DNA from: an uncultured archaeon
Lineage (GTDB): Archaea; Iainarchaeota; Iainarchaeia; Iainarchaeales; CSSED10-239
DNA: 27,867 nt
Assembly (NCBI GenBank): GCA_964591795.1
Contig: CAZQEL010000005.1
Span: 1-27,867 of the forward strand
Reading direction: 5' to 3'
Below, piece after piece: positions 2,081 to 25,537 of the stretch (its first letter is position 1; every line of letters starts with the position of its first letter). Below the pieces are notes generated by a model that was not told the DNA's origin, did no database searches, and saw nothing but the letters and a program-made list of their open reading frames with translations. The translations under genes and the position numbers were made by a program.

Positions 2081-2635
2081 ATGTTAAAAAATTATTTTAA
2101 AAAAATAAAAAAAGATCTAAAAAATAAAACTAAAGTTAAGGATTCTTTTTATTTTTTAATTTATTTTTTAATTTCTTTTGTTTCTATTTATTTATTGTTT
2201 TCAAAAACAATTATATATTCTTTTGTAAATTATTTTTATGGTAGTTTTTCAAGTAAATTATTAAATATTGTTTTTAATATTTCATCTTCTTTTTATTATG
2301 ATTTTATAGAAAAAGTAACTTTTTTGGTTTTACCTAGTTTAAATTATCCTGTGGCAATAATTTTTTTATGTACTGGTATTTTAGAGTTTTCATTAATATT
2401 TAGTTCTATTGTTGCAACTATTGGAGTTTCTGTAAGGCAAAAGACTAAATGGGTTTTATTAGCATCTTTAATTGTAATTGTTTTTAATCTTTTAAGAATT
2501 ACTTTTACAATCTTTTTAATTGTATCCTTAAATTTACAAATTGCAAATTTTTTCCACGGATTTTTGTTTAAATTATTTTTAATAGTTATAGTGATAGGAA
2601 CCTATTATTTATTTTTAAAAAATAGTTTTAAATAA
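2081..2635 (+). CDS. Minimal exosortase/archaeosortase-family membrane protein
   Basis: 184-aa polytopic membrane protein. Ordered signature residues are Cys97 in IIFLCTGILE (nt 2369-2371), Arg139 in FNLLRI (nt 2495-2497) and His159 in NFFHGF (nt 2555-2557). This matches the C.G ... N..R ... H core of exosortase/archaeosortase proteins. The gene starts 5 nt after the rps8e stop. Confidence 0.6.
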   Translation: MLKNYFKKIKKDLKNKTKVKDSFYFLIYFLISFVSIYLLFSKTIIYSFVNYFYGSFSSKLLNIVFNISSSFYYDFIEKVTFLVLPSLNYPVAIIFLCTGILEFSLIFSSIVATIGVSVRQKTKWVLLASLIVIVFNLLRITFTIFLIVSLNLQIANFFHGFLFKLFLIVIVIGTYYLFLKNSFK

Positions 2636-2639
2636 TTAT

Positions 2640-2912
2640 TTATTTTCTAGGTCTTTTTCTTAAATGAAATTTACGCTTTGGTTTTTCAATTGTTTTTTTG
2701 TTTTTTAAAGTGATTTGATTTTCAATCTTTTTATTTTTATTTTTTATTTCCATTATTTCATCAAATATAATTTTCATAAATTTTGTATCACCTTTGTTTT
2801 TTCTTATTACATCTTTACAAAATTCAATATTTAAATTATTAAGTTCATTTTTTCTTTTTGCAATTGGTGAACTTGTGTGGTTCCATTTTTCAGATAAATT
2901 TTCATTTGTCAT
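2640..2912 (-). CDS. Hypothetical small basic protein
   Basis: 90-aa ORF with a polybasic C-terminus (KPKRKFHLRKRPRK). Its start overlaps the end of the upstream minus-strand ORF by 11 nt, suggesting translational coupling. I recognise no family. Confidence 0.5.
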   Translation of the reverse strand: MTNENLSEKWNHTSSPIAKRKNELNNLNIEFCKDVIRKNKGDTKFMKIIFDEIMEIKNKNKKIENQITLKNKKTIEKPKRKFHLRKRPRK

Positions 2913-3297
2913 TTTTATCGTCTTTTAACATTTTTTTAACTTGATCTATTGTAGTGTATTCAAGTGGATTAATATTATCTATAATATATTTCATTTCCTT
3001 TAAGTCTTCTTGTCTTGCATATCTTTTTGAAAACATTTCAAGAGTGGATTCTATTCCTTTTATTCTAGAATCAAATTCTTCAACTTTTGCTAGTATTTTA
3101 TCTAGTTTGTCATTTGATGCAAAAGAGCCTTCGCTATCGCTATTATTATTAGATGCAATTTTTTTATTTAAAATAAGTATGTTTCTTCCAAGAATTTTTT
3201 CATTATGAACTAAATATTTAAGTTTTTGTCTTAAAACCAGAATACTTGATTGTAAAGCCTTTATGTCTTGGTAAACATTTTGCCCTTCGTCTGCCAT
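2902..3297 (-). CDS. Hypothetical coiled-coil protein
   Basis: 131-aa ORF with heptad-like helical segments (QDIKALQSSILVLRQKLKYLV; LDKILAKVEEFDSRIKGIESTLEMF) separated by a Ser/Asn linker. It is the first gene of a two-gene minus-strand unit. I recognise no family. Confidence 0.55.
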   Translation of the reverse strand: MADEGQNVYQDIKALQSSILVLRQKLKYLVHNEKILGRNILILNKKIASNNNSDSEGSFASNDKLDKILAKVEEFDSRIKGIESTLEMFSKRYARQEDLKEMKYIIDNINPLEYTTIDQVKKMLKDDKNDK

Positions 3298-3504
3298 ATT
3301 TTTCTTAACCTTTTTTTTTAATTATATTTATATATTATATGTAATTATATTTAAAGATGTTTGTTTTTTTTAAATATCTTTTTGTTTTCTTTTTCTTTTT
3401 AGTTTAACTTAATTTAATTAGTGTAATTGTGTTCAGTTATTAAATTAAAAACATTTATAAATGATTTGGAACATAATATATATACAAAAATGTGAGGTGA
3501 GTTT
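3298..3504. promoter_or_regulatory. Divergent promoter region (minus-strand two-gene unit / plus-strand surface-protein genes)
   Basis: 207-bp AT-rich spacer. TTTATAAATG lies at 3454-3463, 44 nt before the plus-strand ATG. TA-rich ATATTTATATA lies at about 3324-3334, roughly 30 nt upstream of the minus-strand ATG. Confidence 0.4.
3494..3500 (+). promoter_or_regulatory. Strong Shine-Dalgarno GAGGTGA
   Basis: GAGGTGA lies 4 nt upstream of ATG 3505 and is complementary to the conserved 16S rRNA 3' end (..AUCACCUCC). Confidence 0.6.
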
Positions 3505-3870
3505 ATGAATATGAAAATATTTAGTTTTTTAATAGTTATTATGTTTGTTGCTTTAGCATCAACTTTTGTTAGTGCAAACGATAGATTCGATATTACAGAT
3601 ATATCCTATTCATATGTGAGCTATAATCATCCGTATTATCCTAATGTACCTTACTACAATAGTTATAGTAATTACAATAATTATAATTCATATTATAATG
3701 GATATAACGCAGGTTATGTAAGCCCTTATAACGGTTATGTGACTTATCCAGCATATAATAATTATGCAACATCTTATTATCCTACATACAGTTACCCTAG
3801 ATATTCTTACTATAATAATTCAATTAGTTATGTGAGCCCACAAACAAATGTAGTTTTTAGTTGGCAATAG
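3505..3870 (+). CDS. Secreted Tyr/Asn-rich low-complexity protein
   Basis: N-terminal signal peptide (MNMKIFSFLIVIMFVALASTFVSA). The 97-aa mature part has 27 Tyr and 16 Asn, with no Lys, Glu, Leu, Met or Cys. A strong SD precedes it. Confidence 0.7.
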   Translation: MNMKIFSFLIVIMFVALASTFVSANDRFDITDISYSYVSYNHPYYPNVPYYNSYSNYNNYNSYYNGYNAGYVSPYNGYVTYPAYNNYATSYYPTYSYPRYSYYNNSISYVSPQTNVVFSWQ

Positions 3871-3907
3871 GGTTTGGTTTATTTTTAATCTTGAGGTTTG
3901 ATATTAT

Positions 3908-6900
3908 ATGAACTATAAATACTTTATATTATTTTTTGCAATAATAATTTTTTCGAGTACATTGTTTGCCTATTCGATTGGATTTGATTATGCTGATGTA
4001 AGATCTACATCCTATCCTGTATATATGCCTTATCAGTATGCTGGTGTCTATGATACAATTGATCTTAGATATTCATTATATGGTAATGGATTAACTGCAC
4101 CTGTTAATGTCGTTGTTTCTCCAAAGGTATATGGTATAAATCTATCAGGTCAAAGAATTTTTGTTCATAATGTTCAAACTCAATCTTTTTTAATTCAACC
4201 CTATGGTAATTTTGTCTATTCTTATAATCCTATGTTCTATTTTGATCCTGCCTATCAATCATATGAAGTAGTTTTAGATCTTCAAGCATTAGATGGATCT
4301 TATCAAACAGCTACAAGTTCTTATATTTATTTAAATGGAACTACTGGTGGTAATCAAACTCCTCCAGATCCAACTTTTGAAAATCCAACTTGTGATGATT
4401 TTTATATATCTGGTTTTTCTGATATTTATTTAGATGAAGATTCAAGAGATTTTTATAATCTTTATATAATTAATTCAATTGATGATTCATTAGCAATTAC
4501 TTCAATAACCACAACTCCTATTGATCCTGAAAATTTAGAAATTGAAAATATTACTTATCCATATAATATTTCTTCATACCAAACAAGGAGTGCACAAATT
4601 GATTTATTTACAGATACTGTTTCTTCAAATTATTCAGATAGTTTTGATATTAATGTTAAAGGGAAGTATGGTGATTTAACTTGTGAAAAAAGTTATTCTG
4701 TAAATTATAGAATTAATGATGAGGATTTGCCAAATAATTCTGATTGTGATGATATAAGAATTTCTAATACTTATTTCACATTAAATTCAAACGAAAGTAA
4801 AAATGTATCTGTAAATATTGAAAATGAATCCTTAGATTATTATTTTGATATTGATAGTATTAAATTAAACGAACCTACAAACTCAATTGTAGATGCTTCA
4901 TTAAGAAATAATATTTATTCTATTAATGAAGATTCATCTAAATCTTTAAACTTAAATTTAAATGCAGATGAAACAACTGTTTATAAAACTGAAGATATTG
5001 AACTTAAAATTGATGGTTATTTAAAAAGAACAAATAGAGAAGACAGAAGATGTAGAATAAATGAAACTATTTCCGTTAGAGTGTCTCCAAATTCAAGTAC
5101 CACATCAAACGAATGTAAAGATATTAGTATTTTTTCAAGAAACGTGTCTATTGAAGAAAATACTTTAAAAAATTATTCAAAGACAGATGGTTTTTATTTA
5201 TATAATAATTCTAATAAAAAGTTTATAGTGACTGGTGTTGATTATATTGATAACTCTGGTTATTTGGATGTTTATTCAAAAGCAGTTGATAATTATATTT
5301 TTCCTAAATCATCTGGAAATATTAGTTTTGATTTAAAATCAAAAATAGTTTCTTCAAATATTGATGCTAAAACAAATATAGTTCTAAAAGGTTATTTTGA
5401 AAATGGTGATACTTGTAGTTTTTTAGATATTAAATCAGAATTTAATGTTGGGATTGTAAAGAACGCTGTTTGTTCAAATGTTGGTTTTTTAGATTCTTAT
5501 TTTAAAGATGGAGTAAATTACTTTACAGTGTATAATAATACTCAAAATGATTTTTCAGTAAATGATGTAATTTCTCAACAAAGAAATAATACAACTGTTA
5601 ATGTAATTGATAAATCTTTTGTTATTTTAAATAATTCTCAAAAAACAATTGAGGTAGGTACTTTAAATGAAGGTTCATTTGAACTTCTTTTGAAAGGAAA
5701 ATTTACTAGTGGTGCTTCTTGTGATTATAAGGAAACAACATCTGGTTATTTTACATCTGATAATTATTCTTTTTCAGGATCTGACCCTAGTTGTAATTTT
5801 ACATTTAATTATCCTACAATTAAATATGTTTCATTGGATGGTGATTTTGTAGATATTTCTTTTAAAAATTTAACAAACAAACAAGGAGTTTTAAAGATAA
5901 CTTCCACAGGTACAGTAATTGAAAATCCTTTTATTTATCTTGCACCCTATGAAAACATTTCTCAAAAATTAATTCTTACAAATATAAGTAATCCTAAAAA
6001 TATTATTTATGAAGTAGAAGTATATGGTTGTGCTAAAAAATCATTTGTAACAACTCTTTATCCTTTTATTTCTGTTGACGATCAAAAAATTTATTTTGTA
6101 ACATATCCTACAAGTTTAACTTCTGTAAATAAAAGACTCATTAGTTCTTTTGTTTTGAAAAATACTTCTGAAAATGAAAGTATTGTTGAAATTAAATTTT
6201 CTGGATTTCCAAATAATTTTGTGTTTGTAGCAAATGATTTTATGTTGAATGAAAATTTATTTACAGTTAATGATAATAAAATAAATATTGTACTTAATCC
6301 TTCATCAACCAAAAATATTTATTTTGGAGTTATTGTTCCTGATGATGCTTCAAATATATCTTACAATGGATATATTGATGTTTATAATAAAGGTAAAATT
6401 GTGTTTAATCAACCATTTACAATTAACAGAATTATTTTAAAAGATGAAATTGTTGTTACTAGTAGTTTTGAAAAAATAAATAATAGTAAAAATTCTGTTC
6501 TTTTAAATTTTATGCTTGAAAATAATTCTTCAAATATTAAACATTTATTAATATATTTTGAAGATGAAAATTTATTTACAATTGAAGGAGTTAAATCTAT
6601 AACTTTAGACCCATCTTCTAAGGTATCTCAAAGTTATAAGGTAATTTATGATAATGAACCTTTAATTAAATATAGTGTAATTAATGCGGATACAAATGCT
6701 GTTTTAAAGCAAGGTGAGCTTAATTTAAAAGAAGTTAAAGATAACCCTGGATTTTTAACTGGATTTTTGTCTTTAGCTGGAATTAATTGGGTTTGGGACA
6801 TAATAATAGTTATTATTATAATATGTATTATCTATATTATTTATAATAGTTATAAAATAAAAAAAAGAAAAAAACAAAAAGCTAAATTAAATTTAAAGAA

Positions 6901-7051
6901 AGACATTTTATCAAAAGATGTTGATTTAGAAAATAAAGAGGCGTTTGTTGAAGATAAACTACCTGAATCTAACTTAGTTTCAGAAAATAAAGATGTTTTA
7001 CCTTTAAAAGAAGTTACTTTTGCAGATGTTGATGCTCTTAATAAAAAGTAA
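3908..7051 (+). CDS. Large multi-domain cell-surface protein with C-terminal PGF-TM-polybasic region
   Basis: 1047 aa. It has a signal peptide (MNYKYFILFFAIIIFSSTLFA) and about seven beta-rich modules of roughly 110-120 aa, five of them bracketed by Cys residues. Then come PGF (aa 947-949), a hydrophobic span (950-979), KIKKRKKQK, and a 56-aa charged tail. GAGGT SD at 3893-3897. Confidence 0.85.
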   Translation: MNYKYFILFFAIIIFSSTLFAYSIGFDYADVRSTSYPVYMPYQYAGVYDTIDLRYSLYGNGLTAPVNVVVSPKVYGINLSGQRIFVHNVQTQSFLIQPYGNFVYSYNPMFYFDPAYQSYEVVLDLQALDGSYQTATSSYIYLNGTTGGNQTPPDPTFENPTCDDFYISGFSDIYLDEDSRDFYNLYIINSIDDSLAITSITTTPIDPENLEIENITYPYNISSYQTRSAQIDLFTDTVSSNYSDSFDINVKGKYGDLTCEKSYSVNYRINDEDLPNNSDCDDIRISNTYFTLNSNESKNVSVNIENESLDYYFDIDSIKLNEPTNSIVDASLRNNIYSINEDSSKSLNLNLNADETTVYKTEDIELKIDGYLKRTNREDRRCRINETISVRVSPNSSTTSNECKDISIFSRNVSIEENTLKNYSKTDGFYLYNNSNKKFIVTGVDYIDNSGYLDVYSKAVDNYIFPKSSGNISFDLKSKIVSSNIDAKTNIVLKGYFENGDTCSFLDIKSEFNVGIVKNAVCSNVGFLDSYFKDGVNYFTVYNNTQNDFSVNDVISQQRNNTTVNVIDKSFVILNNSQKTIEVGTLNEGSFELLLKGKFTSGASCDYKETTSGYFTSDNYSFSGSDPSCNFTFNYPTIKYVSLDGDFVDISFKNLTNKQGVLKITSTGTVIENPFIYLAPYENISQKLILTNISNPKNIIYEVEVYGCAKKSFVTTLYPFISVDDQKIYFVTYPTSLTSVNKRLISSFVLKNTSENESIVEIKFSGFPNNFVFVANDFMLNENLFTVNDNKINIVLNPSSTKNIYFGVIVPDDASNISYNGYIDVYNKGKIVFNQPFTINRIILKDEIVVTSSFEKINNSKNSVLLNFMLENNSSNIKHLLIYFEDENLFTIEGVKSITLDPSSKVSQSYKVIYDNEPLIKYSVINADTNAVLKQGELNLKEVKDNPGFLTGFLSLAGINWVWDIIIVIIIICIIYIIYNSYKIKKRKKQKAKLNLKKDILSKDVDLENKEAFVEDKLPESNLVSENKDVLPLKEVTFADVDALNKK

Positions 7052-7288: not shown

Positions 7289-8275
7289 ATGCCAAAAAAA
7301 TATAAACCAAGAGCAGGATCTATGGCTTTTTACCCTAGAGTAAAAGCTAAATCTATTATTCCTAAATTCAATTCTTATAATGATTTTGAAAAAGACGAAT
7401 CAGTTTGTAAGCCTGTGTCCTATTATGGACTTAAGGTTGGTATGATGCAAGTAACTGCAAAAAATGCTCATAAGAATACATCTTCCTATGGACATGAAAT
7501 TGTAGTACCTGTAACAGTTATTGAAACACCTGATCTTAAGGTTTCAGGAGCAAGATTCTATAAAAAGAAAAAGCCGATAACTGGTAAAGATGCTGTTTCA
7601 GAATTTTTAATTTTTAATGCTTTAATTTCAAAAAAAATAAAAGGTAAAAAATCAACTAAGAAAAAAGAAGTTGACGATTTTTTAAAAAATAAAGAACACG
7701 CTGATGATCTTGTTTTATTATGCTATTTAGATACAAAGGCAACTACAATTGGACAAAAAAAACCAATATTAGTTGAGATACCATTATCAGGTAAGTTTGA
7801 TGATAAAATAACTTATTTTAAAGATAAATTAAACAAAACAATACCTATATCAGAAGTATTTGATATAGATACTAATTTAGATGTTAAATCAATAACAAAA
7901 GGGCATGGATTTACAGGTCCTGTAAAGAGATTTGGTATAAAAATACAAAGACCAAAAGCTCAACAAATACAAAGACACGTTGGATCTATTGGTCCATGGC
8001 ATCCTGCAACTGTTATGCATACAGTTCCTAGAGCAGGTCAATATGGTTTCCACAATAGAACTTCTTATATTAAAAAATTATTAGTAATAAATAGTGATGT
8101 AACTAAAGTAAATCCTAAAGCTGGATTTAAAAATTACGGTGTTGTTAGAAATACTTATGTGTTACTTGCAGGTAATGTTCCTGGAGTATCCAAAAGAGTT
8201 GTAGCACTTAGAAAATCAATAAGAAACCCAAGAAGCAAATTAACATTAACTGATATAAATATAATTAATAAGTAA
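7289..8275 (+). CDS. rpl3: 50S ribosomal protein L3
   Basis: N-terminal PRAGSMAFYPRVKA and the internal GHGFTGPVKRFG...QRHVGSIGPWHP motifs are typical of archaeal L3. Confidence 0.95.
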   Translation: MPKKYKPRAGSMAFYPRVKAKSIIPKFNSYNDFEKDESVCKPVSYYGLKVGMMQVTAKNAHKNTSSYGHEIVVPVTVIETPDLKVSGARFYKKKKPITGKDAVSEFLIFNALISKKIKGKKSTKKKEVDDFLKNKEHADDLVLLCYLDTKATTIGQKKPILVEIPLSGKFDDKITYFKDKLNKTIPISEVFDIDTNLDVKSITKGHGFTGPVKRFGIKIQRPKAQQIQRHVGSIGPWHPATVMHTVPRAGQYGFHNRTSYIKKLLVINSDVTKVNPKAGFKNYGVVRNTYVLLAGNVPGVSKRVVALRKSIRNPRSKLTLTDINIINK

Positions 8276-9099: not shown

Positions 9100-9381
9100 A
9101 TGAAGAAAATTACAAAAATATTAGCATATTATGATGTTGTTGAATATCCTGTAATAACAGAAAAAGCAGTTGATTTAATATCAACACATAACAGATTAAC
9201 ATTTATTGTAAATAAAAAAGCAACAAAACCTCAAATTAAGGAAGCTGTTGAAAAATTATATAATATTAAAGTAAAAACAGTAAATACTTTACTTGATAGA
9301 AAAAATAGAAAAAAAGCATTTGTAACTTTAAACAAAGCAAGTAATGCTCAAGATGTTGCAAATAAATTAGGTATTTTATAA
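9100..9381 (+). CDS. rpl23: 50S ribosomal protein L23
   Basis: YPVITEKAV...LTFIVNKKATKPQIKEAVEKLYNIKV. GGTGAT SD at 9089-9094. Confidence 0.93.
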   Translation: MKKITKILAYYDVVEYPVITEKAVDLISTHNRLTFIVNKKATKPQIKEAVEKLYNIKVKTVNTLLDRKNRKKAFVTLNKASNAQDVANKLGIL

Positions 9382-23997: not shown

Positions 23998-24079
23998 GCA
24001 GGGGTTCCCGAGTGGTCAAAGGGGCAGGACTTAAGATCCTGTGCTTAGTGCTTCGCAGGTTCGAATCCTGTTCCCTGCA
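23998..24079 (+). tRNA. tRNA-Leu, anticodon UAA
   Basis: Manual cloverleaf. Acceptor GCAGGGG/TCCCTGC with one G-U pair and discriminator A. Anticodon stem CAGGA/TCCTG with loop CTTAAGA (U33, anticodon TAA, G37). A 13-nt variable region (class II). T arm GCAGG-TTCGAAT-CCTGT. No encoded CCA and no intron. Confidence 0.9.
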
Positions 24080-25342: not shown

Positions 25343-25537
25343 ATGATTATCCCAATACGTTGTTTTTCATGTGGGCAAATTGTTGCTCATGATTATGAAG
25401 CATTTATAAAAGAAATTAAAGATAAAAAGTTAACTCCAAAAGAAGTTTTAGATAATTTTGGTGTAAGAAAATATTGTTGTAGAAGAATGTATATTTCAAA
25501 TGTTGAAATGATAGATGAAATTATGAAATATAATTAA
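25343..25537 (+). CDS. rpoN: DNA-directed RNA polymerase subunit N (Rpo10)
   Basis: MIIPIRCFSCGQIV...YCCRRM zinc motif. GAGGTGAT SD at 25329-25336. Confidence 0.93.
   Translation: MIIPIRCFSCGQIVAHDYEAFIKEIKDKKLTPKEVLDNFGVRKYCCRRMYISNVEMIDEIMKYN

Follow-up and report, generated by a model that had tools for sequence, protein, structure and literature searches.

The open reading frame (ORF) at positions 3505..3870 (+) of a 27,867-nucleotide stretch of DNA from an uncultured archaeon of the Iainarchaeota (contig CAZQEL010000005.1, assembly GCA_964591795.1; the whole stretch is referred to here as the window) is a genuine, conserved protein-coding gene under selection. It encodes a 121-residue protein made up of a predicted 24-residue signal peptide and a 97-residue mature part, and it belongs to an undescribed, lineage-restricted family with an extreme selected composition, dominated by tyrosine. 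The gene is located directly upstream of a gene for a 1047-residue protein that resembles surface layer (S-layer) proteins. Regarding its function, the explanation that we favor, to which we give a little less than an even chance, is that the Tyr-rich protein is co-expressed with this large protein and serves outside the cell as an accessory or "cement" subunit of an envelope resembling an S-layer.

Composition of the mature Tyr-rich protein

Cleavage of the Tyr-rich protein after VSA (residue 24) would release a mature part of 97 residues, which contains 27 Tyr (~28%), 16 Asn, 14 Ser, 8 Pro, 7 Val and 5 Thr, and lacks Cys, Glu, Lys, Leu and Met completely. A preliminary description of this DNA had already called attention to the abundance of Tyr and Asn and to the five missing residues, and the translation reproduced those counts exactly. 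The residues Y, N, S, G, Q, P and T account for ~77% of the mature protein (~11.7 kDa, isoelectric point 5.3, net charge −1), which is polar, nearly uncharged and aromatic, and depleted of charged and aliphatic residues.

The preliminary description had considered this composition to be selected and had proposed a statistical comparison against the rest of the genome, which we ran using the proteins encoded in the window as background (K 13.8%, E 5.2%, Y 3.7%). The probability of finding neither Lys nor Glu in 97 residues was 1.3e-9, and that of finding 27 or more Tyr was 1.5e-16. When the composition of the ectodomain of the large downstream protein was used instead, the corresponding values were 1.8e-5 and 4e-10. 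The GC content of the contig is ~25%, and AT bias was evaluated as a possible cause of the composition. Not one of the 20,000 mononucleotide shuffles removed both Lys and Glu; 3 of 20,000 codon-position-preserving shuffles did so, and the frame stayed open in just 5–12 of 20,000 shuffles. Because shuffling at the level of nucleotides or codon positions rarely reproduces the absence of Lys and Glu or the open frame, AT bias was ruled out as the explanation. The depletion of Lys and Glu was highly significant in both the background and the shuffle tests, in agreement with a selected composition.

The distribution of the tyrosines is not random either. Tyr–Tyr gaps of 3 (Y-x-x-Y; i,i+3) were twofold enriched (104 seen vs. 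51 expected), and long Tyr-free stretches were depleted, given that only 6 gaps of 7 or more residues were seen, when gaps of 7 and 8 by themselves should have numbered 22. The protein is also full of YY and YxY motifs. It carries a single N-glycosylation sequon (NNS), and the possibility that this represents a conserved glycosylation site was dropped, since the sequon is not kept in the homologs, as judged by eye.

A lineage-restricted family under selection

The preliminary description had asked for homologs in related genomes. A word-indexed search and two profile searches, one of them over 1.84 billion representatives, retrieved ~15 homologous clusters of the Tyr-rich protein (112–144 residues, 30–58% identity), to which unannotated copies in related loci were added. 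All of these homologs come from Iainarchaeota/Diapherotrites (DPANN). Tyr represents 26–33% of every family member. Lys occurs at most once per member, and only in position 2 after the presumed cleavage site; in the mature proteins, Glu is found 0–3 times, Cys is absent, and Leu and Met are nearly absent. In contrast, Asn ranges from 2 to 16 and Gln from 0 to 4 per mature member at similar GC content, and this variation of Asn further undercuts AT bias as the cause of the composition. Because every member keeps a high Tyr content and little charge while Asn varies at similar GC, the comparison of the homologs indicates that the first two are the selected traits and that Asn-richness is not.

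Among the nearer pairs of genes, the ratio of nonsynonymous to synonymous substitutions (dN/dS) was 0.10–0.3, with dS saturated. Sequence searches of Pfam, NCBIfam and PDB with the Tyr-rich protein yielded no family match, and literature searches on tyrosine-rich proteins of DPANN returned nothing relevant, which leaves the family undescribed there. One profile match, to a 636-residue repeat protein that looked cadherin-like by eye (P0010, E = 5e-4), was discarded as spurious, as only a strand of the 'FDITAISDD' type was matched.

These data allowed us to evaluate whether the ORF could be a chance open frame in the AT-rich (TAT/AAT-rich) DNA located 5′ of the surface-protein gene. A GC content of ~25% does favor TAT and AAT codons. 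However, besides the rarity with which shuffled sequences keep the frame open, the frame itself, the signal peptide, three motifs and the position of the stop codon are maintained across proteins with 30–58% identity, the dN/dS values of the nearer pairs are well below 1, and promoter-like and Shine-Dalgarno (SD)-like signals are conserved. A spurious ORF is effectively excluded by these observations, and the chance that we would still grant it is very small.

Gene order and expression signals

The order of genes was conserved in the related loci that were long enough to judge it (L001, L002, L004, L006, L009, L011, L012, L013, L015, L016 and L017). It comprises CGI-121 (−), S8e (+), a gene for an exosortase/archaeosortase-family protein of 174–186 residues (+; with one exception, see below), 0–2 variable genes, a gene for a coiled-coil-like protein of 127–131 residues (−), the Tyr-rich gene (+), a gene for a protein of 1,008–1,075 residues (+), and the rpl3 operon (+). 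In the window, CGI-121 and ribosomal protein S8e are likewise followed by the L3-L4-L23-L2... ribosomal operon from position 7289 onward. The Tyr-rich gene was found 24–62 nt 5′ of the large-protein homolog, on the same strand, in all of the independent loci examined (at least 12), which supplied the synteny in related genomes that the preliminary description had looked for. In a six-frame scan, each locus yielded a single strongly Tyr-rich ORF, located immediately 5′ of the large gene in every case; the lone extra match was a borderline Tyr-rich ORF at the edge of L011. The two families have a similarly narrow distribution.

Alignment of eight upstream regions uncovered a promoter-like non-coding element, GTTCAGTTATTAAATTAAAAACATTTATAAA, at 3431..3461 (+), which is part of a wider conserved block (3424-3468). 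It ends in a TATA-box-like sequence, TTTATAAA (3454-3461, +), preceded by an A-rich stretch resembling the transcription factor B recognition element (BRE), in accordance with the archaeal consensus; from this TATA/BRE consensus, we take the element to be a putative promoter. The promoter-like block is nearly invariant in the eight aligned regions even though the proteins are only 40–60% identical, and the non-coding block 3424-3468 is more strongly conserved than the adjacent coding sequence. A degenerate 27-mer derived from the element was present exactly once in 12 of 15 loci, 67–81 nt before the ATG of the Tyr-rich gene, and occurs a single time in the window. The alternative that the block represents an RNA element was ruled out, as RNAalifold predicted no pairs in it and the only Rfam match in the window was a tRNA-Leu elsewhere. 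According to its conservation and position, this block may act as a strong promoter or as a regulator site driving both genes.

An SD-like sequence, GAGGTGA (3494..3500, +), is located 4 nt before the ATG of the Tyr-rich gene, and GGAGG- or GAGGTG-like motifs occupy the same place in most related loci. It had been regarded as the strongest SD of the window; it is indeed among the strongest matches, but stronger or comparable ones are GAGGTGAT (8 nt; gene 25343..25537) and AGGTGAT (7 nt; gene 9100..9381). The spacer between the Tyr-rich ORF and the 1047-residue ORF (3871..3907, +) measures 37 nt, as previously stated, and contains a T-run (3882-3886) and the SD-like sequence GAGGT (3893-3897) of the downstream gene. 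In nine related loci, the spacer varies between 24 and 62 nt and its sequence is not conserved. Because the spacer is so short, there is little room for a separate promoter before the large gene, and both genes are probably co-transcribed.

An oligo-T run was observed directly after the stop codon of the Tyr-rich gene in most loci (e.g., TTTTTTA, TTTATTTTT). This run might work as a partial archaeal terminator and so adjust how much small transcript is made relative to the large one, or it might be no more than AT-rich spacer.

The gene content of the locus also bears on the idea that the Tyr-rich protein is a substrate for dityrosine or isodityrosine cross-linking, by which the envelope would be locked into an insoluble wall. 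Its 26–33% Tyr, its many YY/YxY motifs and its extracellular location are in line with this idea, and such cross-linking has been proposed for other Tyr-rich structural covering proteins, such as the small Bacillus spore-coat proteins CotC and CotU and the plant extensins; Tyr-rich coat proteins that form high-mass assemblies, and dityrosine links in spore coats, have been documented (PMC7944565). Nevertheless, no gene for a peroxidase, laccase or tyrosinase was found in the window or in the conserved neighborhood, to which the search was confined, so that no cross-linking enzyme is genetically linked to the Tyr-rich gene. The oxidative chemistry would require O2 or H2O2. Lys and Asp are abundant as well in CotC and CotU, which have no signal peptides, whereas the Tyr-rich protein avoids Lys, and the extensins differ in being hydroxyproline-rich glycoproteins. 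Cross-linking, which could be combined with the other explanations considered here, is in our opinion improbable.

Conserved islands and predicted structure of the Tyr-rich protein

The alignment of the family showed three conserved islands separated by Tyr-rich stretches of variable length. The protein starts with a Sec-type signal peptide (3505..3576, +; residues 1-24, MNMKIFSFLIVIMFVALASTFVSA), for which cleavage after V-S-A is predicted from the motif, and every homolog has a hydrophobic N-terminus that ends in V[SD]A, ISA, IEA or IFA. The N-terminal island of the mature protein (3583..3660, +; residues 27-52, RFDITDISYSYVSYNHPYYPNVPYYN) includes the invariant or near-invariant columns F28, D29, T31, S34, Y35, S36, Y37, P43 and Y45, and follows the family pattern [KRED]FDVTDISYSYVSY-YPYYPN. 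It is followed by a low-complexity core (3661..3816, +; residues 53-104) that is rich in Tyr and variable in length, with many indels in the alignment and a constant composition. Within this core, the central island GYVSPYNGY (3712-3738, +; residues 70-78; family pattern GY[VI]xPYxGY) shows near-invariant P74, Y75 and G77. The C-terminal island (3817..3870, +; residues 105-121, NSISYVSPQTNVVFSWQ) runs exactly to the stop codon TAG; its invariant or near-invariant positions are N105, Y109, F118 and W120, the family pattern is ISYxSPxxxVxFSW[Q], and nearly all homologs end in FSW[Q]. There is no hydrophobic or transmembrane (TM) segment past the signal peptide, and the protein, which ends in FSWQ, has no C-terminal sorting signal (motif, TM helix and basic cluster).

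The AlphaFold model of the Tyr-rich protein, based on a 13-sequence alignment, contains a confident helix at residues 3-27 (the signal peptide) and a weak beta-hairpin (106-110/115-119), with no confident fold in the mature part. The predicted local distance difference test (pLDDT) score was below 50 at residues 29-104, a value from which inference is limited by the small alignment and the odd composition. In a charge-hydropathy plot, the mature protein fell on the 'unfolded' side (hydropathy 0.389 vs. a boundary of 0.417), again with the reservation that its composition is odd.

These properties led us to consider a self-assembling matrix protein, that is, one forming amyloid-like cross-beta fibers, possibly of the low-complexity aromatic-rich kinked segment (LARKS) type, or a gel or condensate, and being co-regulated with the large protein but not bound to it. 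The mature protein resembles the aromatic-rich prion-like low-complexity domains of FUS and hnRNPA1, as well as archaeal candidate prion domains, in being polar and near-charge-free, with evenly spaced Tyr 'stickers', few aliphatic residues and no confident fold. The Tyr fraction of the FUS low-complexity domain is roughly half that of the Tyr-rich protein. With the reservations given above, the predicted disorder and the position below the charge-hydropathy boundary would be compatible with this reading. A study on archaea reports higher Tyr and Phe in the candidate prion domains that formed amyloid (10.1101/2020.07.20.212902), and another reports that it is Tyr that drives the phase separation of such domains more strongly (10.1101/2021.01.01.425046). 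On the other hand, the Tyr-rich protein is secreted, unlike the cytoplasmic or nuclear FUS and hnRNPA1, and it constitutes a whole small protein and not a domain of an RNA-binding protein. With Gln scarce and Asn not conserved (2–16 across the family), the protein does not qualify as a Q/N prion domain; the prion-like label of this type used in the preliminary description fits poorly, given that Asn-richness is not a family trait. Furthermore, the strong conservation of the extreme termini suggests docking motifs rather than an amyloid core.

A comparison with known extracellular amyloids leads to similar reservations. Like curli CsgA, Fap and archaeal sheath proteins (see PMC11576556), the Tyr-rich protein is rich in N/S/G/Y, is predicted to be exported by the Sec pathway, and has a putative extracellular structural role. 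In contrast to curli and Fap, it lacks imperfect repeat units: Tandem Repeats Finder (TRF) detected a 9-nt micro-repeat (3.7 copies, 3655-3687) as the sole repeat in the gene, and no repeat register was visible in the family alignment. Nucleator, chaperone and secretion-channel genes do not adjoin it either, its neighbors being those for CGI-121, S8e, the archaeosortase-family protein, the coiled-coil-like protein, the large protein and ribosomal proteins. No sequence similarity to curli/Fap-type amyloids was found in the Pfam and PDB searches. Taking both sides into account, a self-assembling protein independent of its large neighbor seems to us unlikely.

The large surface protein and the archaeosortase-family gene

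The gene downstream of the Tyr-rich gene (3908..7051, +) encodes the 1047-residue S-layer-like surface protein, whose organization was deduced from an AlphaFold model and the alignment of its homologs. A signal peptide is followed by an N-domain (residues 22-142) and about seven further beta-sandwich domains; toward the C-terminus, the sequence NPGFLTGF immediately precedes a TM helix (962-988), after which come a basic cluster and a tail of ~55 disordered residues. The model is all-beta (mean pLDDT 69), and the protein has 31 N-x-S/T sequons. Pfam and PDB sequence searches gave no match, and Foldseek with this model returned only generic tandem beta-sandwich proteins (TM-score ~0.1). The signal peptide, the tandem beta-sandwiches, the C-terminal anchor, the 31 sequons and the location beside the ribosomal operon are all consistent with an S-layer protein, and this is probably the main surface protein of the Iainarchaeota cell. 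The SymProFold preprint 10.1101/2024.05.28.596244 lists a 1039-residue Iainarchaeota S-layer candidate, A0A2G9N319.

The homologs of the large protein (P0016-P0024) are 36–55% identical to it. The mean pairwise identity is higher in the N-domain (0.59) and D2 (0.64) than in the membrane-proximal D7 (0.39) and D8 (0.31). The large protein is best conserved in its membrane-distal part and least in the membrane-proximal domains and the tail, the opposite of what is usually expected of exposed surface proteins. Each of the domains D2–D6 contains two Cys. A more distant relative (P0025, 23% identity) was found at L014:6001-8943, ~2 kb 5′ of rpl3 in an archaeon of 31% GC; its C-terminal sorting signal is short and canonical (…NPFGTAFATLG-TM-KRSENR), and no Tyr-rich gene accompanies it.

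The N-domain of the large protein is itself composed of 16% Tyr and ~1% each of Lys and Glu, and residues 32-51 in it form a Tyr-rich loop, conserved among the homologs, for which AlphaFold found no placement. The mature N-terminus of this protein, correctly described before as Tyr-rich, is the next most Tyr-rich and K/E-poor 97-residue stretch of the window (15 Tyr, one Lys plus Glu). We considered whether it could be homologous to the Tyr-rich protein (FDITDI vs. FDYADV). This was rejected: hhalign gave a probability of 5.7%, with mostly the signal peptide aligned, and Smith-Waterman scores against composition-preserving shuffles gave z = 1.95 when the whole sequence was used and 0.33 when it was limited to the first 32 residues. 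As far as these alignments indicate, the likeness is compositional only.

An exosortase/archaeosortase-family membrane protein of 184 residues is encoded at 2081..2635 (+), ~1 kb upstream. It scored 39.7 bits against TIGR04178 (cut-off 23), and the homologs at this position in related loci match PF09721 (Exosortase_EpsH). The gene is located between S8e and the Tyr-rich/large-protein pair wherever the flank is covered, except in L017, where only a 108-residue product without a family match was called. None of the specific Art subfamily models matched the 184-residue protein, and a literature search on Diapherotrites and archaeosortase gave nothing relevant. The protein shows apparent Cys (FLCTG), Arg (NLLRIT) and His (FFHGF) motifs. 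Because 2081..2635 passes the TIGR04178 signature, it is plausible that the large protein is an archaeosortase substrate, and the 184-residue protein probably processes its C-terminal signal. This arrangement is reminiscent of archaeosortase/PGF-CTERM systems such as Haloferax ArtA and its S-layer glycoprotein: a P[GS][FI]L[TS]GF motif is followed in the large protein by a TM helix and a basic cluster, and the family gene is conserved ~1 kb 5′. It differs from the PGF-CTERM arrangement in the unusual tail of ~55 residues after the basic cluster, and the sorting signal is on the large protein, with none on the Tyr-rich protein.

The pair formed by the Tyr-rich and large-protein genes can also be compared with SlaA/SlaB of the Sulfolobales (see PMC10903991). 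As in that system, a small and a large secreted envelope protein are encoded by adjacent, co-oriented and presumably co-expressed genes (24–62 nt apart here), and the large partner is multi-domain, beta-rich and glycoprotein-like. However, SlaB, the small partner, is a membrane-anchored stalk with a C-terminal TM helix and a coiled coil, whereas here the TM/archaeosortase-type anchor is on the large protein (962-988) and the small one is a low-complexity Tyr-rich polypeptide without a TM segment. No similarity to SlaA/SlaB or to a solved S-layer protein was found in the Pfam, NCBIfam and PDB searches, and Foldseek returned generic matches only.

The features of the large protein are relevant to a further possibility, that the Tyr-rich protein is an adhesin or binding tip whose sticky Tyr/Ser/Asn/Gly surface would contact host cells, glycans or minerals and so attach the DPANN cell to a partner or to some surface, perhaps from a position at the outer end of the large protein, on its N-domain. 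Many DPANN are episymbionts, and Tyr-rich, charge-free surfaces make good protein- and sugar-binding interfaces. The protein is predicted to be secreted, its gene adjoins the surface-protein gene, and the 31 sequons of the large protein offer glycans for aromatic stacking. Against this, the Tyr-rich protein has no anchor of its own, its termini are highly conserved whereas proteins that interact with hosts tend to diversify, and no known binding domain was detected in Pfam, NCBIfam or PDB sequence searches. An adhesin function is, in our judgment, quite unlikely.

Other features of the locus

The divergent gene for the 131-residue coiled-coil-like protein (2902..3297, −) shares its intergenic region with the operon, of which its membership is uncertain. 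A gene of this type (127–131 residues) was present at the divergent position in every locus that covers this flank. The protein (MADEGQNVYQDIKALQSSILVLRQKLKYLVHNEKILGRN...) is highly conserved, and family searches with it gave no significant match. A regulator might bind to GTTCAGTTATTAAATT, the part of the promoter-like element that lies 5′ of the TATA-like box, and this site may be shared with the divergent gene.

In two related loci (L011:446-2600 and L017:321-2472), a bAvd-like gene and a reverse transcriptase gene are located directly 5′ of the CGI-121/S8e/archaeosortase cluster. This cassette resembles a diversity-generating retroelement and is absent from the window. The tRNA-Leu (anticodon TAA) of the window, at 23998-24079 (+), is embedded in the ribosomal-protein gene cluster.

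A possible role in the cell envelope

Considering these results as a whole, we propose, tentatively, that the Tyr-rich protein is an accessory subunit of the envelope. Its gene would come first in a conserved cell-envelope operon of two cistrons, and its product would be exported by the Sec pathway and shed the signal peptide, as the cleavage motif suggests. The conserved termini would then dock onto the co-expressed beta-sandwich surface protein of ~1,000 residues, which would be held at its C-terminus by a membrane anchor or by archaeosortase processing. A candidate docking site is formed by the Tyr-rich, K/E-poor N-domain and D2 of the large protein, its best-conserved parts. The evenly spaced tyrosines would provide many weak aromatic and hydrogen-bond contacts, stapling or cementing the envelope.

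Several points weigh against this proposal. The evidence that the small and large proteins interact is the adjacency of their genes. Of the four functions suggested in the preliminary description, that of a partner of the surface protein is the one to have gained positive support, of a genomic and not a physical kind, as the genes are adjacent in all loci; amyloid or prion-like behavior, dityrosine cross-linking and adhesion would agree with the composition. Because the distant relative P0025 has no Tyr-rich neighbor, the fold of the large protein does not inherently need such a partner. Additionally, that the large protein forms an S-layer lattice is itself a prediction from its features. Finally, the low AlphaFold confidence may merely reflect a 13-sequence alignment of odd composition, and the Tyr-rich protein may be a small folded beta domain.

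A variant in which the Tyr-rich protein is a tyrosine 'sticker' protein and a wall element in its own right was also contemplated. The termini would staple the surface subunits, while the tyrosines would form a gel- or condensate-like aromatic layer. We regard this variant as rather doubtful; if true, the physics known from prion-like low-complexity domains of eukaryotes would here be put to use by a prokaryote outside the cell, and two-component S-layers would gain a new type.

To our knowledge, the cell envelope of DPANN archaea has hardly been studied, and for the Iainarchaeota not a single envelope component has been characterized experimentally. The Tyr-rich protein is among the most tyrosine-rich secreted proteins that one is likely to meet. 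Even if it should prove a minor protein peculiar to this lineage, it would still mark the surface-protein operon of this clade and provide a promoter-like element that is strongly conserved. Were it an envelope subunit, it would reveal a new mode of building or cementing an S-layer, in which a disordered aromatic 'glue' takes the place expected of a folded domain, and would offer a natural, compact test case for the self-association of aromatic stickers outside the cell.

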